Origin: an uncultured bacterium
Lineage (GTDB): Bacteria; Bdellovibrionota; JACOXK01; 2-02-FULL-40-11
Direction of reading: 5' to 3'
Length of the DNA stretch: 64,000 nucleotides
Assembly (NCBI GenBank): GCA_964392415.1
Contig: CAYMPL010000001.1
Span: 6,200 to 70,199 of the forward strand
In this document: positions 357 to 64,000 of the stretch, in pieces
Layout: every line of letters starts with the position of its first letter
Numbering within the stretch: the stretch's first letter is position 1
The notes under the pieces: generated by a model
Seen by the model: only the letters and a program-made list of their open reading frames with translations
Database searches by the model: none
Told to the model about the DNA's origin: nothing
Program-made: the position numbers and the translations under genes

Positions 357-1280
357 ATGTCCACCGGTTCATTTAAAAAAATTGGTTTAATGGCAAAAGA
401 GGGGAATAAAAAGGCGGCTGAAACCGCAAAAAAAATTATCCCCTGGCTCCAGAGAAAAAAATGTGAAGTATTGCTTCCGAAGGAAATATTTTCAACCATA
501 GGATGGGAAAAAACACGTTTCGCAGGCTTTGGAAAACTTGTTCCCTTAGCTTCTTTATCGAAAGAGGTCGATTTGATCCTTTCTTTGGGGGGGGATGGGA
601 CTTTTTTAAAGTCCGTCAGACTTCTTCATGGGCGCAAATGCCCCGTTGTTGGAGTTAAGCTGGGAGGGGTGGGTTTTCTGACAGATATTTTACCCGCAGA
701 GGTTGAAAAAGGGCTTGAACTCATTTTTAATAAAAAGGCTGTGATAGAGGAACGTGTTAAGCTCAAAGCGAAAATTTTGCGATTGGAAAAGGGGGTGGAA
801 GAGGGTGCGAAAAAAGAGGTCGCTTCTTTTGAAGCATTAAATGATGCGGTATTACATACCTCTGGTATTGCAAGAATTTCGAGCTACCATATCTCTATTG
901 GGGCTGACCATTTCACAACACTTAATGCTGACGGAGTGCTTGTGGCAACCCCTACAGGCTCAACTGCCTATTCTTTTGCGGCCGGGGGGCCGGTCACACA
1001 TCCAGAGGCCAAAGTGCTCATTGTAACTCCGATCTGTCCCCAAAATCTGGCGAATCGCCCCCTGATTGTCGCTGACGAAACTAAAATTGCTATAGAGCTT
1101 GTCTCACACAACAGTGAGGTTTTGCTTACGATGGATGGTCAGGAGACATATATAATGAAGGAAGGAGATACCGTTTGGATATCCAAATCCGATCATTCTG
1201 CCTATTTTTTGGGACACTCTCAGAAAAAATACCTCGAGTCGCTCAGAAATAAACTTTTTTTGGAGCCAGACTTTTCTTGA
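357..1280 (+). CDS. nadK: NAD(+) kinase
   Basis: GGDGTFL motif and NADGVLVATPTGSTAYSFAAGGP motif; the alternative ATG at 390 may be the true start because the divergent rarA gene begins at 299. Confidence 0.9.
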   Translation: MSTGSFKKIGLMAKEGNKKAAETAKKIIPWLQRKKCEVLLPKEIFSTIGWEKTRFAGFGKLVPLASLSKEVDLILSLGGDGTFLKSVRLLHGRKCPVVGVKLGGVGFLTDILPAEVEKGLELIFNKKAVIEERVKLKAKILRLEKGVEEGAKKEVASFEALNDAVLHTSGIARISSYHISIGADHFTTLNADGVLVATPTGSTAYSFAAGGPVTHPEAKVLIVTPICPQNLANRPLIVADETKIAIELVSHNSEVLLTMDGQETYIMKEGDTVWISKSDHSAYFLGHSQKKYLESLRNKLFLEPDFS

Positions 1281-6881: not shown

Positions 6882-7139
6882 TTATCTGTACACCTCCCTC
6901 CTATGGCCTATTTTCACAATCAGAACGAGCAGAATCTTGTCAAGTATCTGGTAGATGACACGGTAATCTCCTATGCGAACGCGATAGAGATTTTCTTCCC
7001 CGGAAAGTTTCTCAACGCCATGGGGCCGTGGATTTTGGGCCAGATCGTCTATCTTCCTCTCGATTCTGTTTTGGACAGGGATCGGAAGACTATTAAGTTG
7101 TTTCCGGGCTTTTTTATCGATCTTTATTGTGTAAATCAT
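6882..7139 (-). CDS. RelE/ParE-family toxin
   Basis: 85 aa, ...LYRVRIGDYRVIY...HRREVYR RelE/ParE signature; lies immediately downstream of the antitoxin gene. Confidence 0.85.
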   Translation of the reverse strand: MIYTIKIDKKARKQLNSLPIPVQNRIERKIDDLAQNPRPHGVEKLSGEENLYRVRIGDYRVIYQILDKILLVLIVKIGHRREVYR

Positions 7140-7148
7140 CGGATCCGA

Positions 7149-7394
7149 TCACCTGCGCCTCTCTTTTTTGACAGTCTCCCAGGGAATGAATTCGTTCCTT
7201 TTCAAGGCTTCTCTGGCATCCTCAAGGTCTATTCTGTTCTCGATCTCCTCCAGAAGCTCCAGGTCCTCTATGGGGACAATAGCCACGACATTTTTCCCCT
7301 TTCTGGTGATAACGATCCTCTCCTTGGCGTAGACTGTCCTATTGACGATCTCCGCGAATTCCTTTCTTGCCTCCACAGATGTATATTTAGCCAT
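7149..7394 (-). CDS. Phd/YefM-family antitoxin
   Basis: 81 aa, EARKEFAEIVNRTVYAKERIVITRKGKNVVAIVPIEDLE matches the Phd/YefM fold; 9-nt spacing to the toxin gene. Confidence 0.85.
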   Translation of the reverse strand: MAKYTSVEARKEFAEIVNRTVYAKERIVITRKGKNVVAIVPIEDLELLEEIENRIDLEDAREALKRNEFIPWETVKKERRR

Positions 7395-7501
7395 ATATTT
7401 ACCTCCTATATATAATATACATAATAGTCATTATTATGTCAATAGACATAAATATGCGATGAAGCATGTTAATGCGCTATTTCGAAGAAATGGCGCGTCG
7501 C

Positions 7502-17462: not shown

Positions 17463-18581
17463 TCATTGAAAAAGGTGTTGGTTAATAGTATCTAGCCCCT
17501 TTATATCGTAGATGTCTTGGGCAAAAAAAGGGATTTCGTAAACTGGTACACCTGCGGTGGGCGCTGCTGTGGAGAGAGATTTTTTAAATTGTTCTGTTTC
17601 CATTCTTTCTCTTTTGGCAAGCTCTTCCCACTGCTCGAAGATTTCAAGTTTCACCCGCTCGTTCTTTGACATTTTTGGTTTCATGTTTTCCAGCGTTTTT
17701 CTTTGGGACGAATAGGCATCCGCTGTCAAGGGAATGTCAGCTAAAATCCGGTTGATGATGATCCCTCCAAACGGAAGTTTCATTCCAGTAAGCCTTTCAT
17801 AAAAACGAAAGGCTTCTTCAAGCATTCTCCTTTCAGGGACAGTTGCAAGTAAAAAAGCGGTTTCATGACTCCCCAAAATTTCTCTGGCTTTTAGTGTTCG
17901 TTCCCGAAAACCGGTATAGAGCGTTTGTAAATTGATAAAAAATTCTGACAATTCATAAAAGAGCTGAAGGCCTGTGAATCGCTCGATGATTTTAAAAACA
18001 AAATAAGAGCCTGCCGACAAAAACTGAATGCTCAATTTTCCTGCTAGAAAATAGGGTTTGAGAAACCATTTTAGAATATTTTCATCGAGAAAATTGGAAA
18101 GTCTTTCCGGGGCTTCCAGAAAATTGAGCGCGTGTTTTGCTGGAGGGGTGTCGATGACGATGAAGTCATAATGGTTTTCCTTCCAAAGCTCGTAGAGTTT
18201 TTCAAGGGCCATATAGTCCCGTGTTCCCGCAAGCATCGTTGAGAGATACTGATAGATCCGGTTTCCCAGAATTTTATCAATAATTTCCTGGGACGGCGCG
18301 TACTGGCGTATCAGTTGATCCAGTGTCTCTTTGGTATCGAGCATCATCGCCCAAAGTTTCACATCCTTACTGAGAGGAATTGCCTTTGGGCGATGGTCGA
18401 ACTGATCAAACCCGAGGGTTTGCGCGAGCCTTTTTGCTGGATCGATCGTCAAGACGAGTGTTTTTTTCCCGGACTTTGCCGCATGTACGGCAATAGCGGC
18501 GGAAAGGGTCGTTTTTCCCACCCCTCCGCTCCCCGAAACGATAACCACTTTTTTGGTTTTTAGAATATCAGCTAAGCCCAT
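17463..18581 (-). CDS. ArsA/GET3-family P-loop ATPase (second of a tandem pair)
   Basis: SGSGGVGKTT deviant Walker A, DTPP switch region. Confidence 0.8.
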   Translation of the reverse strand: MGLADILKTKKVVIVSGSGGVGKTTLSAAIAVHAAKSGKKTLVLTIDPAKRLAQTLGFDQFDHRPKAIPLSKDVKLWAMMLDTKETLDQLIRQYAPSQEIIDKILGNRIYQYLSTMLAGTRDYMALEKLYELWKENHYDFIVIDTPPAKHALNFLEAPERLSNFLDENILKWFLKPYFLAGKLSIQFLSAGSYFVFKIIERFTGLQLFYELSEFFINLQTLYTGFRERTLKAREILGSHETAFLLATVPERRMLEEAFRFYERLTGMKLPFGGIIINRILADIPLTADAYSSQRKTLENMKPKMSKNERVKLEIFEQWEELAKRERMETEQFKKSLSTAAPTAGVPVYEIPFFAQDIYDIKGLDTINQHLFQ

Positions 18582-19501
18582 TGTTTTTCGATTTCCTTGC
18601 CGAGTTTTTTAAGAGCGGAGAGATCAGGCGCTTCCTTTAAAATCCAGGGGATCTTAAAGCTTTTTTTTGACAACTCTTTCTCAAGGCGGTCTTCATACGA
18701 TTGCTGGATCTTTTGTCTTGTTTGATAATGAAGGAGGGTCTGTTCTATCTTTTTAAGGAGTGAGCCCATGTCATTCTGAGAGCCCCAAAGTCCAATAGTT
18801 CGAAGAATCCCATTATTTTCAAAAGCCTCCAGTTTTTTATTTAAAAACAGTTCTCCCATCGGAAGTCTTAGTTTTTTGATTTCATTAAAAAGCTCGAGGG
18901 TTTCCTGAACAGGGAGTTCTTCAGGAATAGTAACCAGATGAATCGCTGTCTCTTTTTTTTCGGTGAGCATCGAATAGATTTTTTGGGATTGCTCCGCCAG
19001 GGGGCCTTTTTGAGTCAAATCGATAAAGACCTTTGGAATTTTAAAAAGATAAAGAGCGTGGCCTGTTGCGGGGGCGTCAACAATCAAAATATCCCAGCGG
19101 GGTTTCTTTCCGGAACGCTCATCGCTCAGGTAATACATTTTTCCGATCAACGCCATTTCTTCCACCCCTGGGGCCGCTTTCACAAAAAAATGGAAAATCT
19201 TATTTTCAAAGATGAGATCATATATTTTTTCGATCTTTATCTGACGGATAATAAATTCTCTAAGAGAGGACAAAGGATCGATCAAAACCCCATCAATGTT
19301 TGGGGCAAGCGGTTTGGGGGTCATCGTCCCTTTTTCAGTGTTAAAAAGGCACGATACTGGGCTTTCAGGATCGAGATCGATCAGAAGTACTTTTTTCCCC
19401 CGGCTTGCTGCGATGAGAGCGAAAAGAGACGCAATCGTGGTTTTCCCGACCCCCCCCTTTCCGGTGAAAAAATGAAGTCTCTGCTGAAATAGCGATGTCA
19501 T
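18572..19501 (-). CDS. ArsA/GET3-family P-loop ATPase (first of a tandem pair)
   Basis: TGKGGVGKTT, DAPATGHAL; 10-nt overlap with the downstream paralog. Confidence 0.8.
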   Translation of the reverse strand: MTSLFQQRLHFFTGKGGVGKTTIASLFALIAASRGKKVLLIDLDPESPVSCLFNTEKGTMTPKPLAPNIDGVLIDPLSSLREFIIRQIKIEKIYDLIFENKIFHFFVKAAPGVEEMALIGKMYYLSDERSGKKPRWDILIVDAPATGHALYLFKIPKVFIDLTQKGPLAEQSQKIYSMLTEKKETAIHLVTIPEELPVQETLELFNEIKKLRLPMGELFLNKKLEAFENNGILRTIGLWGSQNDMGSLLKKIEQTLLHYQTRQKIQQSYEDRLEKELSKKSFKIPWILKEAPDLSALKKLGKEIEKQWA

Positions 19502-22899: not shown

Positions 22900-22999
22900 T
22901 GGCGGAAGTGTATGGGAATCGAACCCACCACAGACATAGAGACTATGTCTGTCACTGGATTTGAAGTCCAGGAAGTACACCAGAAACTTAAACACTTCC
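22900..22999 (-). tRNA. selC: tRNA-Sec (selenocysteine tRNA, anticodon UCA), 100 nt including encoded CCA
   Basis: Reverse complement reads GGAAGTGT (8-bp acceptor stem pairing with ACACTTCC), anticodon stem-loop CTGGA-CTTCAAA-TCCAG (UCA), long variable arm TGACAGACATAGTCTCTATGTCTG, T arm GGGTTCGATTCCC, discriminator G, CCA. Confidence 0.85.
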
Positions 23000-36191: not shown

Positions 36192-36318
36192 AGATTCACC
36201 ATAGCGCCTCAAACCGTACCACAGGCCGATGTCAAATTTCAACATATTCTGGCTCATATTATTCTGGCTAAACAATATATTTGCTAAAATCGCCGTCTGA
36301 TATAAATTGGGAAATTCG

Positions 36319-37224
36319 ATGGAAAACTACAGGATTCCATATCTCAGGGAGCTCGAGTCCGAGAGTATTTATATTATTCGCGAGGCTCAAGCTGAATTTA
36401 AGAATCCGGTCATGCTCTATTCGATCGGCAAAGATTCGTCTGTGATGCTTCATCTGGCAAGAAAGGCCTTTGCGCCTGGCAAGATTCCTTTTCCTCTCCT
36501 GCATATCGATACGGGTTACAAATTCAGAGAGATGATTGAGTTTCGGGATTATTATACGAAAAAAATAGGGATTCGGCTGCTCGTTGAACGAAATGAAGAA
36601 ATGATCGCCAAGGGGATGCACCCTTCTCTCTATGGAACCGATCGATGCTGTGGTTTTTTAAAAACAAAGGCGCTGCTTTCCGCCCTTTCAAAACACAGAT
36701 TTGATGCAGCCTTTGGGGGGGCCAGGCGTGAAGAAGAAAAATCGAGGGCGAAAGAGAGAATATTTTCCGTTCGAAATGAATTTGGCGTCTGGGATCCCAA
36801 AAATCAGAGGCCGGAGCTTTGGCATCTCTACAACTGCAAGTTAAGGGGGGAAGAGACGATGCGTGTTTTCCCCCTCTCAAACTGGACGGAGGGGGATGTC
36901 TGGGACTACATCAAATTGGAAAATATCGAAGTGGTCCCTTTGTATTTCGCCAAAGAGCGTCCAATCGTCAGGCGAAGGGGGATGGTTATTCCGGTAGATG
37001 AGTCAACGCATTTAAAAACAGATGAAAAAATAGAGAAAAAAATGATTCGTTTCCGGTCGCTTGGCTGTTCCCCCTGCACAGGGGCGATCGAATCAAAAGC
37101 GGCAACGATTGATGAGATTTTGATGGAAGTGCTGGAAACGAAAAAATCGGAGAGAGAAAATCGGGTGATCGATTTTGGATCTGATAGTTCAATGGAAGAG
37201 AAAAAGAGAGAGGGATATTTTTAA
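36319..37224 (+). CDS. cysD: Sulfate adenylyltransferase subunit 2
   Basis: [28 protein letters not shown]-reductase-fold motifs; the alternative upstream ATG at 36307 is possible. Confidence 0.85.
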
Positions 37225-37226
37225 GG

Positions 37227-38518
37227 ATGGGATTTCCAATATCGGATCGGGAATTATTAAGGCTTACCACCGCGGGGAGCGTCGATGATGGAAAATCGAC
37301 CCTGATGGGGCGGCTCCTTCATGACTGCAGCAAAGTTTATGAAGATCAGCTGGAGGCGGCCCGTCAGACAAGCCTGCGAAAAGGGAATTCGGAGGTCGAT
37401 CTTTCGCTTCTGATGGATGGGCTCTCTTCCGAGCGTGAGCAGGGGATTACCATAGATGTTGCCTATCGTTATTTTACGACGCCGAAACGGAGATTCATTA
37501 TTGCCGATGTCCCTGGACACGAACAATATACAAGGAATATGGTGACCGGCGCTTCGAACGCCCATCTTGCGGTCATTCTTATCGATATAACGAAAGGGTT
37601 TCTCTTTCAGGCCAAACGGCATCTGGTCATTGCAACGCTTCTTCAGACGCCGCATCTTCTGATTGCGATGAATAAAATGGATCTCATCGGCTATGACGAA
37701 GGTGTTTATGAAAAAATAAAAGGCGAGATTTCGCAGTTTGTTTCGAAATTGGGCGTGAGGGATCTTCAGTTTATTCCCATGTCTTCTCTTAAGGGGGACA
37801 TGGTTGTGAAACGGCACGATCAGATGGATTGGTATGGGGGGTATACGCTGCTTCATTATTTGGAGAACCTTCACATATCGAGTGACCGGAATCTCATCGA
37901 TTTCAGATTTCCTGTTCAGCTTGTCATCCGCCCGGATGCTTCTTTTAGAGGTTATGCGGGGAGAATCGAAGGGGGGGTGATTCATCTGGGGGATGACATT
38001 GTCTCTCTCCCTTCCGGGAAAAAATCGAAAATCAGATCTATTTTAACCCCTGAAGGGGAAAAAACATACGCTTTTACCCCCCAGTCTGTGACACTTGTGT
38101 TGGAAGATGAAATTGATGCGAGTCGCGGGGATATGTTTGTGAGGCCAGAGAATATTCCGGATATTTCTCATGAATTTCAGGCGGCTGTTTTTTGGATGTC
38201 TGAGAGTCCTTTTGTCGAAAAAAAGAGCTATCTCATCAAACAGGGGACAAAAATAACCCGCGGTTATGCCAGTGAGCTGAGGTACCGGATTGACATCGGC
38301 GATCTCCATCGAAAAGAAGCAAAAGAACTGGCCTGTAACGAGGTGGGAAGGACGTTTATAAAAACCCATGAGCCGCTGATGTTTGATCCCTATGCGAAAA
38401 ACAGAAACACGGGCTGCTTTATTTTTATCGATGAACTGACTTATGAGACCGCAGGCGTCGGCATCATCTGGCACCGCTTTGCAAAATCGGATCACCTACA
38501 GTATCAGGAATTTAAGTC

Positions 38519-38522
<4 letters not shown>
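37227..38522 (+). CDS. cysN: Sulfate adenylyltransferase subunit 1 (GTPase)
   Basis: GSVDDGKST G1 motif, DVPGHEQY, NKMD. Confidence 0.85.
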
Positions 38523-40528
<2,006 letters not shown>

Positions 40529-45340: not shown

Positions 45341-45709
45341 ATGTACGAAATCATTGTAAAGGAGCATTTTTCAGCGGCCCACCAACTGCGTGATATTTCC
45401 GGAATGTGTGAAAATTTACACGGGCATAATTGGCGCGTGGATATTTCCGTTTCTTCTGAGATATTAAATGACATAGGAATTGTGGTTGATTTTAAGGTGG
45501 TCGAAGATACTTCTAAGGAAATCATAGATCGTCTGGATCATCAGATTTTAAACGAGCTTCCGATTTTTCAGGATCTCAATCCCTCCGCGGAAAATATTGC
45601 GCGTTACATTTGTGAAGAATTGAAACGAAAACTGAACTCTGATTCGTTTCGTGTTCGTAAGGTCACCGTTTGGGAAACCGATACTTACGGGGCAAGCTAT
45701 TCATGTTAA
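45341..45709 (+). CDS. queD: 6-carboxy-5,6,7,8-tetrahydropterin synthase
   Basis: CENLHGHNW zinc/catalytic motif of the PTPS/QueD family, about 120 aa. Confidence 0.8.
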   Translation: MYEIIVKEHFSAAHQLRDISGMCENLHGHNWRVDISVSSEILNDIGIVVDFKVVEDTSKEIIDRLDHQILNELPIFQDLNPSAENIARYICEELKRKLNSDSFRVRKVTVWETDTYGASYSC

Positions 45710-46485
45710 ATGATGTTCAAAATAGCCCAGACCACCGGGGAGTCCCTCTCCAGCAGGTAGGGGTCAAAGGGGTGCGCTATCCCATTAAAGTGAAAGATCG
45801 TCTGAATGGCTCTCAATTAACGATTGGGACATTTAATATGTATGTCGATTTGACTGACAAATATAAGGGGACTCACATGAGCCGGTTTATTGAGATCCTC
45901 AATCGCTATCATGACGCGATTGATGTTGAAAATTTCAATCCCATTTTAAAAGAGATGAGAAACCGGCTCGAGGCGGATATTTCCGTGCTCGAAGTTTCTT
46001 TCCCCTATTTTATCAAGAAAGCGGCGCCGGTCTCTCGGGCGGAGAGCCTCATGGAGTATTCGTGCCGTCTCTGGGGGAGGCAAGATTCGGAAAAGACTGA
46101 TTTTCTGATATCAGCTGAGGTTCCTGTGACAACCTTGTGCCCCTGTTCAAAAGAAATCAGTGAAAGAGGGGCGCATAATCAGCGGTCACATGTCATCTTG
46201 TCTATTCGTTCGAATGCCTTTGTCTGGCTTGAGGATTTAATTCGCGTTGCTGAAGACAGCGCAAGCGCAGAACTCTATCCGCTTTTAAAGCGCGTCGATG
46301 AGAAGGCGGTAACGGAAAGGGCTTATGATCATCCACGATTTGCTGAAGATGTGGTTCGTGAAGTTACACTCAGGCTCGACGATTGGTCTCAAATTCAGTG
46401 GTATTCGGTCGAGTGCGAGAATTTTGAATCGATCCATGGTCACAACGCGTACGCTTTTTTGAAAAAGGATAAATCATGTCATTAA
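45703..46485 (+). CDS. folE2: GTP cyclohydrolase FolE2-like (T-fold, DUF198)
   Basis: LPDVQN...VGVKGVRYPI N-terminal signature; ATGTTAA overlap with the queD stop. Confidence 0.65.
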   Translation: MLNDVQNSPDHRGVPLQQVGVKGVRYPIKVKDRLNGSQLTIGTFNMYVDLTDKYKGTHMSRFIEILNRYHDAIDVENFNPILKEMRNRLEADISVLEVSFPYFIKKAAPVSRAESLMEYSCRLWGRQDSEKTDFLISAEVPVTTLCPCSKEISERGAHNQRSHVILSIRSNAFVWLEDLIRVAEDSASAELYPLLKRVDEKAVTERAYDHPRFAEDVVREVTLRLDDWSQIQWYSVECENFESIHGHNAYAFLKKDKSCH

Positions 46486-47156
46486 GAAGCGTTGTTCTTC
46501 TTTCTTCTGGGCTCGACTCAACGGTTAATTTTTGCAAGGCGTTGAGGGAGACAGAGGTTGTTCTTTCACTGACATTTGATTATGGACAAAGGTCAGCCGT
46601 TTCAGAAATCTCTGCCGCGGCAAAAATTTCTGAAAAATATGGAATAAATCATCGTATCATTCGATTGGATTGGCTGAAGGAGATGACGCTGACATCCCTT
46701 GTGAATCGCTCTTTGGATATTCCTAAACTTTCTCCAGCTCATCTGGATAATCGTGAAATAACTTTAAAAAGCGCGGCCGAAGTTTGGGTTCCAAATCGAA
46801 ACGGCGTGTTTATTCATATCGCCGCAGCCATCGCGGAAGTGATGAGGGTAGAGTTCATTGTTGTCGGTTTTAATGCGGAAGAGGCAAAAACATTTCCAGA
46901 CAATAGTCAGGAATTTATCGACCGGGTTAACCAGAGCCTCGAGTTTTCAACGCTCACAAAACCGAAAGTGATCTGCTACACAGCTTCTTTTAACAAAAAA
47001 GAGATTGTTCAGCTCGGCCGCGAACTCAACGCCCCCTTTGAACTGATGTGGAGCTGTTATGAGGCGGGGGAGAAAATGTGCGGAAAATGTGAATCGTGTT
47101 TAAGATTTATGAGGGCGATTTCCGATGAAAATCGTGCAAACAAAATTTATAAATAA
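46476..47156 (+). CDS. queC: 7-cyano-7-deazaguanine synthase
   Basis: VVLLSSGLDSTV PP-loop, C-terminal CGKCESCLRFMRA zinc motif. Confidence 0.85.
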   Translation: MSLRSVVLLSSGLDSTVNFCKALRETEVVLSLTFDYGQRSAVSEISAAAKISEKYGINHRIIRLDWLKEMTLTSLVNRSLDIPKLSPAHLDNREITLKSAAEVWVPNRNGVFIHIAAAIAEVMRVEFIVVGFNAEEAKTFPDNSQEFIDRVNQSLEFSTLTKPKVICYTASFNKKEIVQLGRELNAPFELMWSCYEAGEKMCGKCESCLRFMRAISDENRANKIYK

Positions 47157-47738: not shown

Positions 47739-48689
47739 TCACAAATCTTCCTCGATCTCATAATACTGGGTCACAAAGCTTGTCAGAAGATCTACGATCA
47801 ACTCCCGTATGACCGCCCTTTTTAAAGTCTTTTTGACTTTAAAATTCCCCTTTCCCTTTTCATTTTTTTCTATCTCTATATTTACGAGGTCATTTAGAAG
47901 CGGTTCATAATCGACTGGTATAATGGTATTGTCAACATTAACTCTAAAGATTGCCTTATCAAAACCACTCTCTTTCGGTTGGAGAATGGTCTTCCCATTT
48001 TCCTTAACCTCTTCCCAAACGCTCTTTAAGTGATAATGTTTTCCAAAAAAATGATAAAAATTTACGTAAATATCATCCAGAAGTTCTTTTATACCTGAAA
48101 CATCTTTTTCTTTGACCAGGAGATCGGCGGCATGATGAAAATCCTTCAATTTTTGAGCGTCGAGAATCGGTTCTGAAGTAAAGTAGCGAATCGTTTCCAT
48201 GAGAAGATCTTCATTTTGAATGATTTCAATCAAGGCATTTCTGGCTTCATGCCTGTTGTATTTAAGTGTTAAAATCTCAAGTAATTTCCCAATGGTATCT
48301 TCTTTTCCTCCTTTCAAATACGACTTTGTTTCTTTAGAATCTGTTTTCCAATCGTAGGCCATGCGGAGCGCGGTTGCGAATGAAGAAAGAGTCATGGTGC
48401 GATCATTTGCCAGGTTCGAGAATTTCAAGTGATCAATAATTCGGGTTAATCCGTATTTATTAAGACCTAATTTGGCAAGAGAAAAATCCTCTGCCAGGGG
48501 AGAGAAGTTTGCGACGTTATTCAAATCAGATTTAACTTTAGGATTATTTGGAGGATTATTTGAATGATTATCCCCCGCCTGATTGTTTAGATTGTTTGAT
48601 TGGAGGGGGGGCTCAGATGGAGAACAGCCTAACATCAAAAGACATAAAAATATAATATAATTTTTCCCCATTGTTAGTTTCACCATCAT
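47739..48689 (-). CDS. Hypothetical lipoprotein (partner of the Met-zincin)
   Basis: Lipobox LLMLGCS; ATGA overlap with the upstream metalloprotease gene. Confidence 0.4.
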   Translation of the reverse strand: MMVKLTMGKNYIIFLCLLMLGCSPSEPPLQSNNLNNQAGDNHSNNPPNNPKVKSDLNNVANFSPLAEDFSLAKLGLNKYGLTRIIDHLKFSNLANDRTMTLSSFATALRMAYDWKTDSKETKSYLKGGKEDTIGKLLEILTLKYNRHEARNALIEIIQNEDLLMETIRYFTSEPILDAQKLKDFHHAADLLVKEKDVSGIKELLDDIYVNFYHFFGKHYHLKSVWEEVKENGKTILQPKESGFDKAIFRVNVDNTIIPVDYEPLLNDLVNIEIEKNEKGKGNFKVKKTLKRAVIRELIVDLLTSFVTQYYEIEEDL

Positions 48690-51600
48690 TAGTCCAATGA
48701 AATAGATTTGTTATTATAAAGATAATGTATCATCTCAATCCTCTGCCGATAGGCGTTCAAAGATCTTTTTACAATATTTAATCTTGAAATAATATTGCTC
48801 TCTGGATTTTCTGGATCCAATTCCTTTTCTTTCTCTTTCAGCTTCTCCATGAGTTTTTCTTTATTATCGTAAAGAGAAATTCCAGGCAATACTGTATTTA
48901 ATTCATTGAGATATTCTCTAAGACTGCTGAGTATACCTTTGGCAGGGAGTTCTTTATTTGCTTTTTCGATGATTGAATTAAGTTTTGCTATCATATTAGC
49001 TTTTTCATCTTCATCAAGCAGGAGAATTACCCGTGTAGGGCTGCTTTCTTTTGTAATCATGATCACCGCAGGATGAATAAGGGGGTTTAGCGCCATAATA
49101 TGCTCCTCCGTGATATTGGATAAATCTTCTGCCAGATTCTGGATCAGGGAAATAGCTTTCTTAACCTCTTTTAAAGAGAGGGAGGTCAATTTCTGAAAAA
49201 TTTTATTATATGCCTCGATGAGCGTATAGGTCGGTGTTGTCGGATATGCCAAAACCGCCTCTTTTTTAGCTGAAAAAATTTTTCCTTTTTCATGGTCTAT
49301 GAGAAATGTGTGTGGTTCATCTGCATTTAAAAGTGAAAGTCTTTGCAACTCTTCATCATTCAGCTCCAATTCATTGATGTTAAAGAATTCCGCTGCGTCT
49401 TCGGAAGGGCTTGCAAAGGCTGTTACCACTGAATCGCCTGAAGGGACCTTATTCATAAATCTTTGAATAGCCGTAAAGACAATGTCATTGGGAGTGGAGA
49501 TATCGGTAGCAACCGTGTAAAAGAATTCAAATAGTTTATCTTGGTAAAGAGGGAAGTCAAAATAGGTTGTCCTTAAGGCCGACCAGGGGTCGACGCCTAA
49601 ATTGCGAGTGCTAAGCGCATCTGCCGCAAGCAGTTTATCAATCCATGTTCCCCGGGCGAGAAGTTCATCTTCGCCTAGGAATTTGGGATGAATGATATCT
49701 TTATAGACCCGATCTTTATCGAGAATGATTTGGGTAAAGAAGTCAAAGCCGATGGCAGCCGCTTTTTCCAGGTCTTCCAGGAGTATTTTCCATTCATCTT
49801 CTTTGAGCGGTTCGTCTGTTAATGTTGTGCTCTTTGTTCCAACATGAATCTGGTAGTCTAAGAATTCTCTTAAAGGGAGGAAATAATAGTTGATCAGATT
49901 TTTACTATATTCTCTTTCAGCTTCCGGAGTATTTTTAAAATGGATTTTTTTATTTCTAAAGTTTCTGTGCGCATATCCATCATGATATTTTTTTACAAGA
50001 TATTCTGCGATTTTTTCAGCGCTCTCTCCGCGGTCCCAGTGATTGCAAAGAGGATCTATAGGGACGCTCTGATCGGAACAGAAGAGATAGTTTTCATGGA
50101 AGTCAAAATCGCCGCTAAATGCGTAGGCCAATGCCGCTTTGTCGTAAGGGCCTGGCGTTCCTTCCTCGCTGTCTTCGATTGCAAGGTAGTCCATTGCGGA
50201 TGATGTTTGAATCTTTTCAGAGATGTAATGTTTTTTATCGAGCGAGCCTTTGAAATTGTGAGCCAGACCCAAATTATGCCCCATTTCATGAACCAGTGTG
50301 TTGAGAATGATTTCCTGAAAGAGTTCTTCTTCTGTTTTTTTAAGAAACCACGGCTCCGCAGGAGCGCCCCCCGCAGGGGTTTCTTCCAGGGCAGGATAGT
50401 AACAGCGGTCAGAAAGGTTTTTATAATGATACAGGGCGCTCTCCAGCGTCTCGGGTTTTTTTATCTCTTCAAATATTTTTTTAAAGGAGGGGGCATACGA
50501 GCCCTCATGAATTAATTCAGAAATCGATTTTGTTGTATCAGGATTATTTGCATCAGGCTTCATTTGGGATTGCATGAAGTTCATCCTCTCTCTTTTTTCC
50601 AGGATATGAAGAACGGTCTGTTTGATATTTCCGGCGAATATATAGGTATCAGCATTTATAATTTCCCCGGTCAGTCCGTCGGCATAACTTGGGCCTAGTC
50701 CCAGAGGGCCCTTAAAAATCGGGTCTTCAATCCAGACGATAAAATTATGTTTAAGATCGCCCAGTTCTTCACCCGAGATTCCAGGGTGGTTTTCCTGGAG
50801 TTCAATCAGGGGGTTCCCTGCGATTTTCATATCTTTTAAAACCTCATTCCACCGGGCAATCACTTTTTTCACGAGAAATTTATATTTCTTAGGGAAATTC
50901 CGGGATAAAGTATATTTAATTTTTTTATTCGGATCCCAATGCAGCGCATATCTCTTTTCTTCCGCTTCATTGTATTTGTCGTACGATTTTATTTTTGTTG
51001 AAAAGATACCCACATGTTCTCTTAATCGTTCTGTATACAAGGTGGATTTAAAATTTTTATTTTCTTTTCTCTTTAAGAAGCTTGCTTTCAATTTTAAAGT
51101 GAATGTTTTCCCCGTTGATTCTTCACTGTCTGGCGCCTCTTTCCTGAATGTTTTTTGAACGACAAGATTTAAGGATTCTTCATCCTGATTTAAATCAAGT
51201 AGATCTGAACTTACTTCGGTAATATGGTTGAGATTTTCGTAAATTTTAAATTGAATAAAATCGACGGGGATTAATTTCAAGCGTGCAAAATTAATTTTTG
51301 CGTATTTTCTTTCATTCCAGGGGCGTTCCCTTTCTGTTTCAATTTCCTTGTGGGTTATTTCGTCATCGCCATTTTTTTCTCTTTCGACATCGACATGTTT
51401 TTCCAATGGAAAAACAAGGACCGGTTCCGCAAGGGAATGATCGTCTTTGTATCGGGGATCGATGGCATAAAGAGTCAGGTTATTTTCGCTGAATTCAAAT
51501 TTTGCGGATGCCGATGTTCCTGATGAATCCCCGAGATGGGTAATTCCGGTATCTGCCGAGGCTCCAACGACGGTTACTTTATAATAAAATTCTCCGTCTG

Positions 51601-51751
51601 TAAAAAAATTTTTTTCAAGTCTCTGAACTTCAGGCAGAATCTCTTTGACCGGCCGCTTTTTGGCGCATGATGGACCGACGAGAAAAATAAAACCAAGGCC
51701 AACAATTTGAAGAATGTGAGAATATTTTTTTATTTTCATATTAAAATCCAT
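48689..51751 (-). CDS. Large secreted zinc metalloprotease of the Met-zincin type (DUF4953-like), 1020 aa
   Basis: Signal peptide; TLVHEMGHNLGLAHNF HExxHxxGxxH zinc-binding motif. Confidence 0.7.
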   Translation of the reverse strand: MDFNMKIKKYSHILQIVGLGFIFLVGPSCAKKRPVKEILPEVQRLEKNFFTDGEFYYKVTVVGASADTGITHLGDSSGTSASAKFEFSENNLTLYAIDPRYKDDHSLAEPVLVFPLEKHVDVEREKNGDDEITHKEIETERERPWNERKYAKINFARLKLIPVDFIQFKIYENLNHITEVSSDLLDLNQDEESLNLVVQKTFRKEAPDSEESTGKTFTLKLKASFLKRKENKNFKSTLYTERLREHVGIFSTKIKSYDKYNEAEEKRYALHWDPNKKIKYTLSRNFPKKYKFLVKKVIARWNEVLKDMKIAGNPLIELQENHPGISGEELGDLKHNFIVWIEDPIFKGPLGLGPSYADGLTGEIINADTYIFAGNIKQTVLHILEKRERMNFMQSQMKPDANNPDTTKSISELIHEGSYAPSFKKIFEEIKKPETLESALYHYKNLSDRCYYPALEETPAGGAPAEPWFLKKTEEELFQEIILNTLVHEMGHNLGLAHNFKGSLDKKHYISEKIQTSSAMDYLAIEDSEEGTPGPYDKAALAYAFSGDFDFHENYLFCSDQSVPIDPLCNHWDRGESAEKIAEYLVKKYHDGYAHRNFRNKKIHFKNTPEAEREYSKNLINYYFLPLREFLDYQIHVGTKSTTLTDEPLKEDEWKILLEDLEKAAAIGFDFFTQIILDKDRVYKDIIHPKFLGEDELLARGTWIDKLLAADALSTRNLGVDPWSALRTTYFDFPLYQDKLFEFFYTVATDISTPNDIVFTAIQRFMNKVPSGDSVVTAFASPSEDAAEFFNINELELNDEELQRLSLLNADEPHTFLIDHEKGKIFSAKKEAVLAYPTTPTYTLIEAYNKIFQKLTSLSLKEVKKAISLIQNLAEDLSNITEEHIMALNPLIHPAVIMITKESSPTRVILLLDEDEKANMIAKLNSIIEKANKELPAKGILSSLREYLNELNTVLPGISLYDNKEKLMEKLKEKEKELDPENPESNIISRLNIVKRSLNAYRQRIEMIHYLYNNKSISLD

Positions 51752-52529
51752 AGTTCAATCCGAGGAAGAGTTCGCTTCCTTCCACATCAAAAAGTTCAAT
51801 GTTTAATTCCTGACCATTGTTTTTATATTGCCGCCCCCCTGCGGAATGTCCGAGAGAAAGACCGAGGGCATCGGTTGCCTGATAATCCAATGATTGAACA
51901 AATGAGTAAGTTGCTTTTGGCGATTTATTATAAGTTGCGAAATTGAGGAGACTCCAGGCTGTGTTTAGCGCGAGTATGTCCGTAAAAGCGAAACCGATAA
52001 GCAGGGTATTTGTCATTCCATAATGTTTGTTAGATGTCCCATTTTTGGCTGTTCGGAAACGATTGGCAAAGTAGGTTCCCGAAAGATCGTACCCAAAATG
52101 AAATTGTGAAAGATCTTTCGAAAGCCCCAGCCCTGTTGTCAAAGCAAAGATTTGGCTTCGTTTCTGGCTCTCTTGAGAAAGAGGCAAAAAGAGTTTTCCG
52201 TAGCCATTAAGCGTAATCTCTGTCTCCGGATGGGTATAAATATCTGAAACAGAGGTTCCAACGACAGCATCTTTTAAGAAAGCTTTTTTCTCCTGGGTGA
52301 ACGATTTTACAAAACCGAGATCGAGTGTGCTTCGAATATGTTCAGCCCACTCGTATATGCCAATGACTGAAAAGTCATTATAGACATTTTTATGATTACG
52401 ATTGATGCCAGTCACAAGAGAGTTGGAAATGTTTGCAGAGAGCATACCGCTCTCATCTTGAGCCTTCACCGGTTGCCCAAACAGACACAACAACCCTATA
52501 AGACCCAATAGCCCAACGAATACCTTCAT
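51741..52529 (-). CDS. Outer-membrane beta-barrel protein (putative)
   Basis: Signal peptide with VKA-QDE cleavage, alternating amphipathic strands, C-terminal aromatic (LNYGF). Confidence 0.5.
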   Translation of the reverse strand: MKVFVGLLGLIGLLCLFGQPVKAQDESGMLSANISNSLVTGINRNHKNVYNDFSVIGIYEWAEHIRSTLDLGFVKSFTQEKKAFLKDAVVGTSVSDIYTHPETEITLNGYGKLFLPLSQESQKRSQIFALTTGLGLSKDLSQFHFGYDLSGTYFANRFRTAKNGTSNKHYGMTNTLLIGFAFTDILALNTAWSLLNFATYNKSPKATYSFVQSLDYQATDALGLSLGHSAGGRQYKNNGQELNIELFDVEGSELFLGLNYGF

Positions 52530-62723: not shown

Positions 62724-62903
62724 ATGATTAAACAGGATGCCCGGCTTGTGGATAAACGGGTTATCAAAAGACATATCGCACATAATCTTCTTACAGAGAA
62801 GGAATTCAAGTCTTATCTTGCTTCGCTGAAGGATTCTTCTTCCTCAGCCGAAGAGATTGATATTAACGAAGATGATGCACGTAAGATTTTAGATAAATCT
62901 TAG
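62724..62903 (+). CDS. Small hypothetical protein (59 aa), not in the ORF track because it is under 60 aa
   Basis: RBS GGGGG 7 nt before the ATG; MIKQDARLVDKRVIKRH...; overlaps the selD 3' end by 15 nt. Confidence 0.25.
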   Translation: MIKQDARLVDKRVIKRHIAHNLLTEKEFKSYLASLKDSSSSAEEIDINEDDARKILDKS

Positions 62904-63935
62904 AATAGCCCGATCACTTCTAAAGACCGAACCAATCCGTCGGGATTCCTTTAAACCGGCCGCGTGAAATTTTTTAAGGATCGGGAGGGCTTCCTCCTCC
63001 GGCAAGCTGATGAAAAGCCCCCCTGATGTCTGGGGATCAAAGAAGAGCGTCTCCCATTCTTTTGAAAACGTTCTTTCAAACCAGATGGCATCCTTCACAT
63101 AGAGTCTATTCGTCCGGTCCGCGCGTGTAAGCACCCCTTTTTTTGCAAAATAGAGCGCTTCTTCATAGTACGGCAGGCAATCACTTTCGATCAAGAGCCC
63201 TTTGCTGCTTGCCTGAGCCAACTGAAAGGCATGTCCTGTCAGACCAAAACCGGTGATGTCGGTACAGGCATGGATGGTAAATCCCGCCATGATTTCGGCT
63301 GCTATTTTATTCAATTGGGTCATCCAATGGCAGACATATTCGATCGATTCTTTTGACGCCTTTTTCTTTTTGATCGCTGTGGTAAGAATTCCTGTTCCGA
63401 GCGGTTTTGTGAGAATCAGCGCGTCTCCCTCCTGGGCTCCTTTATTCGTATAAATTTTTTTTGGATGAATCAGCCCTGTCACAGCCATCCCATATTTGAG
63501 CTCAGGATCGGAAACGGTGTGTCCCCCCAGTACCACGACGCCTGCTTCCCAGGCTTTATCCTGCCCCCCAGAGAGAATTTTCTGAAATACTTCGATGGGG
63601 AGGCTGGAAGGAAAGGCGGCAACATTGAGCGCGGTTAAAGGATGTCCCCCCATCGCGTAGACATCGCTCAGCGCATTTGCCGCGGCAATTTGTCCATAAA
63701 TGTAGGGATCATCCACAATGGGCGTAAAAAAATCGACCGTCTGCACGAGGGCTATTTCATCCGAAATTTTATAAACGCCGGCATCGTCGGCCGTCTCCGC
63801 CCCAACCAGAAGGTTTGGATCCGAAGGTGTTTTTAGATGAGCAATAATCTGCCGCAACTCCGTTGGGCTGAATTTAGAGGCTCAACCGGCGCATTTCACT
63901 TTTTCAGTGAGGCGCCAAATATCTTCTTTCGTCAT
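62889..63935 (-). CDS. selD: Selenide, water dikinase (selenophosphate synthetase) with an in-frame UGA selenocysteine codon at complement(63882..63884); N-terminus extended relative to the ORF track
   Basis: Reverse translation MTKEDIWRLTEKVKCAG-[TGA]-ASKFSPTELRQIIAHL...DPNLLVG aligns with E. coli SelD SIRLTQYSHGAGC(17)GCKISPKVLETIL...DPNLLVG, placing TGA at the catalytic Cys17 position. Confidence 0.85.
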
Positions 63936-64000
63936 ATATGAATTTACGCTGCCGCCGGCTGCCGGCTGATTTCGAGTTTTCGCAGATCTCCCTTAATTTC

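Follow-up and report, generated by a model that had tools for sequence, protein, structure and literature searches.

The selD locus and its surroundings

The window, i.e. the whole 64-kb stretch of DNA that was analyzed, carries a selD gene on its minus strand (Table 1). In the ORF list, this gene is given as a 322-aa protein starting from the TTG at 63857. Read further upstream, the same frame runs through a TGA up to an ATG and yields the translation MTKEDIWRLTEKVKCAG*ASKFSPTELRQII (minus strand, the asterisk standing for the TGA). The original prediction had proposed precisely this longer gene, and the coordinates that it gave for the gene, the ATG, the TGA and the start of the ORF call all proved to be correct when read on the minus strand.

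Table 1. Coordinates of selD, its predicted recoding elements and selC in the window
Feature	Position	Strand	Basis
selD, full coding sequence (348 codons including Sec18, then TAA)	62889..63935	minus	translation and TIGR00476
ATG, predicted true start codon of selD	63933..63935	minus	first start codon past the in-frame stop 63995..63993
UGA, predicted Sec codon (Sec18), equivalent of E. coli SelD Cys17	63882..63884	minus	homolog alignment
TTG, start in the mechanical ORF call (Leu26, within the 3' strand of the hairpin)	63855..63857	minus	ORF list
TAA, stop codon of selD	62891..62889	minus	translation
SECIS-like hairpin, GCCCAAC-GGA-GUUG(C)GGC	63851..63868	minus	fold and comparative evidence
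Hairpin, 5' strand	63868..63862	minus
Hairpin, loop	63861..63859	minus
Hairpin, 3' strand	63858..63851	minus
Hairpin, bulged C	63854	minus
selC, tRNA-Sec with anticodon UCA	22900..22999	minus	ARAGORN tRNA-SeC(tca); Rfam RF01852

For the profile searches and the structure comparison, selD was translated with a Cys substituted at the TGA. The product passes the NCBIfam SelD profile TIGR00476 (382.4 bits for a cutoff of 125) as well as NF002098 (321.9 for a cutoff of 299). It also matches end to end the structures of SelD from Aquifex aeolicus (PDB 2YYE/2ZOD, E = 2e-66) and from Escherichia coli (3U0O, E = 4e-60), with which it shares the N-terminal Gly-rich loop and the invariant Asp/Asn residues. 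The AIRS and AIRS_C domains (PF00586 and PF02769) are on record for its 97%-identical relative P0001. In an alignment of 14 sequences, residues D50, D51, D68, N87, D91 and D226 are invariant, and since all of them are kept in the window the gene looks intact.

Around selD, the lineage shows a conserved gene order. The nadA gene lies upstream in four relatives (L081, L083, L166 and L168). Downstream come a small ORF, a gene of the HU family and a rhomboid protease gene, the last two being also found in L081, L084 and L171, and the rhomboid protease in L083. No sel gene was linked to selD in the neighbourhoods of the relatives that were examined. A 59-aa ORF on the plus strand (62724..62903) converges on selD and covers the last 15 nt of that gene. 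This ORF is without NCBIfam match, but it is also called at the same place in L081 (6955..7137) and, at 1079..1258, in the independent assembly L171, and may be a real small protein.

Several other regions of the window can be described. The queuosine-pathway genes tgt, folE2 and queC lie close together on the plus strand (39102..40220 and 45670..47156). On the minus strand, three successive ORFs of 316, 1020 and 262 aa (47739..52529) display the lowest GC content of the window, 0.39, and gave no NCBIfam match at a strict threshold of E <= 1e-40. Two adjacent genes of the same strand (17463..19501) match the models of the mycobacterial ATPases BagB/BagA below their cutoffs (302 vs 521 and 141 vs 400 bits), and probably make up a distant pair of ArsA/GET3-like ATPases. 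Finally, at about 6900..7415 (minus strand), a TGA (7149..7151) separates two short frames, one of 92 aa and the other of 88 aa. The 88-aa frame begins ...MIYTIKIDKKARKQLNSLP, which we take to resemble the N-terminus of RelE/ParE-type toxins, and the two frames may be an unannotated toxin-antitoxin pair. They overlap a 170-aa ORF of the plus strand (6903..7415), so that one of the two readings must be spurious.

The in-frame TGA and the segment upstream of it

In E. coli SelD, residues Cys17 and Lys20 are essential for catalysis. In the window protein, U18 and K21 align with these two residues in 3U0O, and with the SGCAAK loop of 2YYE. In the nearest full-length homolog, P0013, the sequence is VKCAGCASKFSPT, against VKCAG*ASKFSPT in the window, and the motif xAG[C/U]xxK is present across SelD homologs, including the one from the window. 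The alignments with full-length homologs and with 3U0O thus agree with the original proposal that the TGA takes the place of the catalytic Cys17. E. coli SelD has a second Cys at +2 from the catalytic one (C17-G-C19), whereas in the window protein Sec is preceded by a Cys at -3 (C-A-G-U). The C-A-G-U motif was considered as a possible peculiarity of this gene and the idea was rejected, CAGUASK being the commonest variant among the distinct Sec-type sequences collected (29/115).

The codon present at the Sec18 site was determined in 171 SelD loci. This survey, anchored on the conserved core of the SelD protein, took in nine close Sec-type relatives, the nearest Cys-type relative, 80 species genomes and 80 metagenome contigs. 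The genome and metagenome scans yielded sequences of at most 55% identity. The codon is TGA in 148 loci, TGT in 13 and TGC in 10, and no other codon was observed; among the close relatives (97-59% identity), TGA is found in nine out of nine. The comparison with SelD orthologs, which had been suggested as a check, therefore came out in favor of the prediction, and an independent assembly agrees with it.

One would wonder whether the TGA could be a TGC or TGT that was misread in sequencing or assembly, in an ordinary Cys-type selD, since one base change would be enough and a Cys-type SelD does exist in a fairly close relative (L084/P0013). However, a separate 8.1-kb contig from ENA (ERZ1292639, sample 'Hain_H51_02um') does not differ from the window along 202 nt that include the ATG, the TGA and the hairpin, and in a further dataset, SRR22387804 (97% identity at the protein level), the TGA has been kept despite six substitutions nearby. 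The same TGA in these two independent sources excludes for practical purposes an error that the original prediction had itself raised as an objection. The nine close relatives with TGA also come from different samples, and downstream of the codon lies a hairpin that is specific to the Sec type. We thus regard an error as extremely improbable.

Another explanation would be that translation starts downstream of the TGA, at the TTG 63857 or later. The gene would then encode a shorter SelD, or be a decaying pseudogene, and the upstream frame would be an untranslated leader. Gene callers indeed pick such starts, in the window and in the majority of its relatives. Lengths of 322-327 aa prevail among the closest database homologs, so that most of these have been truncated likewise. 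Moreover, no strong Shine-Dalgarno sequence directly precedes the ATG 63935.

On the other hand, the 16 codons located before the TGA vary mostly synonymously. The numbers of synonymous and nonsynonymous codon changes are 4/0 in L082, 5/1 in L165, 6/3 in L083 and 8/3 in L168, and the synonymous ones prevail in every relative down to 66% identity, L166 excepted. Because the differences lie mainly at third positions, we read this segment as translated and, on the basis of these comparisons, as being under purifying selection. An N-terminus M-T-K-(E/K/Q)-D-I-W is common to L081, L083, L165, L167 and L168. In addition, the match to TIGR00476 begins at residue 8, within the segment discarded by the ORF call. 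Given this profile match and the alignment of the TGA with Cys in the homologs, the upstream extension is not a chance open frame. The truncation of the ORF call that had been predicted is thus in line with both the selection on the upstream peptide and the start of the profile match.

A shorter product would also be deprived of the Sec (or Cys) and of the Lys equivalent to E. coli C17 and K20. As the call, in the deposited record as in the mechanical list, omits 26 N-terminal residues with the catalytic Sec and Lys, the annotated 322-aa protein would be inactive on paper. A functional downstream start, the other objection that had been foreseen, would delete these very residues. A decaying pseudogene fits poorly with the rest of the gene, which keeps all the residues invariant across the 14 homologs, and the TTG itself sits within the conserved hairpin. 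Altogether, a downstream start seems to us very unlikely.

A third explanation is a genome-wide reassignment of UGA to Gly or Trp, as is the case in some uncultivated lineages and in mollicutes. The organism does belong to an uncultivated lineage, known from metagenome assemblies only. Nevertheless, TGA is the stop codon of 23 of the 60 long non-overlapping ORFs of the window, among which are the confidently identified enolase, CysN, SecD and rhomboid protease, and the window holds no further convincing in-frame TGA. A scan of its unassigned DNA for other UGA-split genes returned 134 raw junctions, none of them credible, since all could be ascribed to off-frame noise or to ordinary stops. The original prediction that other UGA-containing genes are mis-split elsewhere in the genome thus stands as an expectation. 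A reassignment is thus vanishingly improbable. Because TGA acts as an ordinary stop in these 23 ORFs, a recoding must be specific to the selD site.

A candidate SECIS hairpin downstream of the UGA

The original prediction expected a bacterial SECIS within 10-50 nt 3' of the UGA, and a hairpin is found in this interval. It is made of 7 bp and a GGA loop, begins 13 nt past the UGA, with its loop starting from nt +21, and spans nucleotides 17-34 when the U of UGA is numbered 1. Folding of the region downstream of the UGA, which had been proposed as a check, located this hairpin but gave no support in terms of stability: the fold of the 76 nt that follow the UGA does not surpass those of dinucleotide shuffles (z = 0.10). 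Compared with synonymous recodings of its own peptide, the window hairpin has a z of -1.2 (p = 0.12). Since single-sequence stability is not significant, we relied on comparative evidence.

Two pairs of short complementary segments had been pointed out in this region. CCAAC does belong to the true 5' strand of the hairpin, but its partner is the GUUG at 63858..63855 and not a distant GUUGG. UGAGC does pair with GCUCA in the window, giving an outer stem in the MFE fold. Relatives do not conserve this outer stem, which is missing from L082, L083, L165 and others, and we rejected it.

All the close Sec-type relatives have kept the seven pairs out of seven. The sole change of the hairpin in L167 concerns the bulged base. 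In L170, replacement of Arg (CGG) by Gly (GGC) removes the bulge and the pairing is still 7/7, while in L168 the replacements of Ser by Asn (AGC to AAC) and of Arg by Gly (CGG to GGU) turn a G-C pair into an A-U pair. The changes in these two relatives are thus compensatory. In contrast, the nearest Cys-type relative, L084, encodes nearly the same peptide (SKFSPTQL) and yet retains only 0-1 of the seven pairs, with a fold of -3.9 kcal/mol. This locus (L084:2517-3581, P0013, 58% identity) has TGT at the site, has lost the hairpin and displays the same HU/rhomboid neighbourhood. This sister lineage seems to have undergone a conversion from Sec to Cys.

The same contrast is observed at the level of the family. 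A stem of 5 bp or more, located 12-37 nt past the codon and having a G within the first two positions of its loop, is present in 117 of 135 distinct Sec-type sequences vs 7 of 20 Cys-type ones (Fisher p = 2e-6). Fold energies are -13.6 kcal/mol for the Sec-type and -9.9 kcal/mol for the Cys-type sequences (p = 0.0017), and the mean z against their own synonymous recodings is -1.13 and -0.18, respectively. The loops of Sec-type selD genes (L001-L170, nt +1 to +60) fall into two positional groups. In the first one, to which the window belongs, they start about 17-21 nt past the UGA, and in the second one about 34 nt past it (e.g. GUU, GUC and GUG).

In the register of the window, the two strands of the stem show complementary variants in different lineages, for example GCCUAAC/GUUAGGU, GUCCAAA/UUUGGAC, AUCCAGC/GCUGGAU, CUCCAGA/UCUGGAG and GGCCAGG/CCUGGCC. 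Covariation of the helix 17-23/27-33 was tested on 124 distinct Sec-type 48-mers, aligned without gaps and without any selection, and on 500 shuffles. Paired cells amount to 62.3% vs 56.7 +/- 1.0% in the shuffles (0/500) and cells altered on both sides to 94 vs 48.8 +/- 5.7 (0/500), and the covariation score is 0.261 vs 0.171 (0/500; the shuffles ignore phylogeny). In a slide control, the signal peaks at register 0, and shifting the 3' partner either way lowers all three measures. As the hairpin overlaps conserved codons (S/G-P-x-x-L), part of the covariation signal could be derived from the protein, and the difference between the Sec-type genes and the Cys-type ones argues more cleanly for the hairpin.

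Like the bacterial SECIS elements of the bSECISearch type, whose numerical criteria are reportedly to be found in Zhang and Gladyshev (2005), the hairpin is a stem-loop placed just past the UGA in the coding sequence, with a G opening a small loop about 20 nt off. It differs from them by its short 7-bp stem with one bulged C, its unremarkable stability and the lack of an Rfam match, no Rfam family being found over 63780..63940 at E <= 10. This last result does not count against a SECIS, since the elements of bacteria have been described as heterogeneous and difficult to capture in a model (PMC12013277). General features of these elements have been described (PMC12013277, PMC1794560, PMC1976440). 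Lying in the predicted interval, covarying and missing from the nearest Cys-type relative, the segment 63868..63851 is supported by these comparisons as the candidate SECIS of selD.

Decoding machinery and significance of a Sec-type SelD

As the original prediction had mentioned, the window also contains selC. The encoded tRNA-Sec scores 71.5 bits with RF01852 for a gathering score of 47. In its fold (z = -3.6), the acceptor stem counts 8 bp, the T stem 5 bp and the variable arm 10 bp, and the molecule ends in G+CCA. An NCBIfam sweep found none of selA, selB and ybbB among the genes of the 64-kb window. In L081, a relative with 97% identity, neither selA nor selB is present in the 6 kb that follow the end of the window; this region encodes NadA, a HAMP-domain protein, a weak BamE match, a tryptophanase and LolC/E.

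Several candidates for the missing genes were considered and rejected. The two ORFs flanking selC (445 and 618 aa) could be selA and selB by their size, but they are actually an S8 protease and a TPR protein. The 461-aa 'Beta_elim_lyase' gene located upstream of selD in L081 is not selA but a tryptophanase. As for CysN (37227..38522), it matches the selB model weakly (97 bits for a cutoff of 242) because both proteins are translational GTPases. It belongs to a sulfate-activation cluster of the plus strand (36307..39109), composed of cysD (36307..37224), cysN and the APS kinase gene cysC (38519..39109). Sulfate-activation enzymes can also act on selenate, and this cluster might feed selenium metabolism.

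The UGA could also be read through without Sec, either by near-cognate insertion of Trp or Cys or with the help of a structure, as proposed for the hymenopteran SPS1-UGA, the hairpin being then a general stimulator. UGA-adjacent stem-loops have been proposed to promote such a non-Sec read-through in some SPS genes (PMC4561486), and selA and selB are not seen in the window. Such a reading must nevertheless contend with a dedicated and well-formed tRNA-Sec encoded in the same window, with a site that alternates with Cys codons only, which is the signature of Sec/Cys exchange, and with a loop that has the G described as conserved in the apical loops of bacterial SECIS (PMC1794560, PMC1976440). 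We give it very little chance of being correct.

In our opinion, it is highly probable that selD encodes here a Sec-type selenophosphate synthetase whose UGA is decoded as Sec. Translation would begin at the ATG 63935 and, on reaching the UGA (63884..63882), the ribosome would insert Sec rather than terminate. SelB, the Sec-specific elongation factor, would bind the mRNA hairpin 63868..63851, with its G-rich GGA loop, and would deliver Sec-tRNA(Sec), the product of selC (22900..22999). This scheme presumes that selA and selB are present elsewhere in the genome. The product would be a 347-residue enzyme (348 codons counting Met1) with an N-terminal loop bearing Sec18 and Lys21.

Sec-containing SelD proteins occur in Haemophilus influenzae, in A. 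aeolicus and in many Deltaproteobacteria and Clostridia. The window gene resembles the bacterial Sec-type selD genes by its TIGR00476 family, its UGA at the Cys17 equivalent with a Lys three residues on, and its hairpin inside the coding sequence right after the UGA. Its truncation by gene callers is likewise routine, and nothing of substance is different. The association of a Sec-type selD with a hairpin is indeed already known, very common and a matter of textbooks (PMC1794560, PMC4561486). SelD counts among the two selenoproteins that are most widely distributed in bacteria (PMC1794560). Sec is encoded by about 19% of the SelD genes of prokaryotes, invariably at one position and with a bSECIS, and the recoded UGA causes selenoprotein genes to be usually misannotated (PMC4561486). 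The lineage of the window gene is thinly sampled ('Deltaproteobacteria bacterium' MAGs), its nearest database relatives being 97%, 80% and then at most 68% identical, and the gene is not clustered with selA, selB or selC.

A more speculative hypothesis would be that this thinly sampled groundwater lineage has kept Sec decoding mainly or only for SelD. It is drawn from the isolation of selD and selC from other sel genes, together with the Cys conversion and the hairpin loss in L084, and we consider it rather unlikely. If true, SelD would need its own product, the selenium donor, for its own synthesis, in a self-referential loop, and a natural system would have been caught close to losing the Sec trait.

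The main value of this finding is for annotation, with a corrected gene model, complement(62889..63935), and Sec at 63882..63884, and it leaves the understanding of selenocysteine biology unchanged. Recognizing the UGA as Sec would mark the organism as a selenium user: the uncultivated bacterium from which this DNA comes probably uses selenocysteine.
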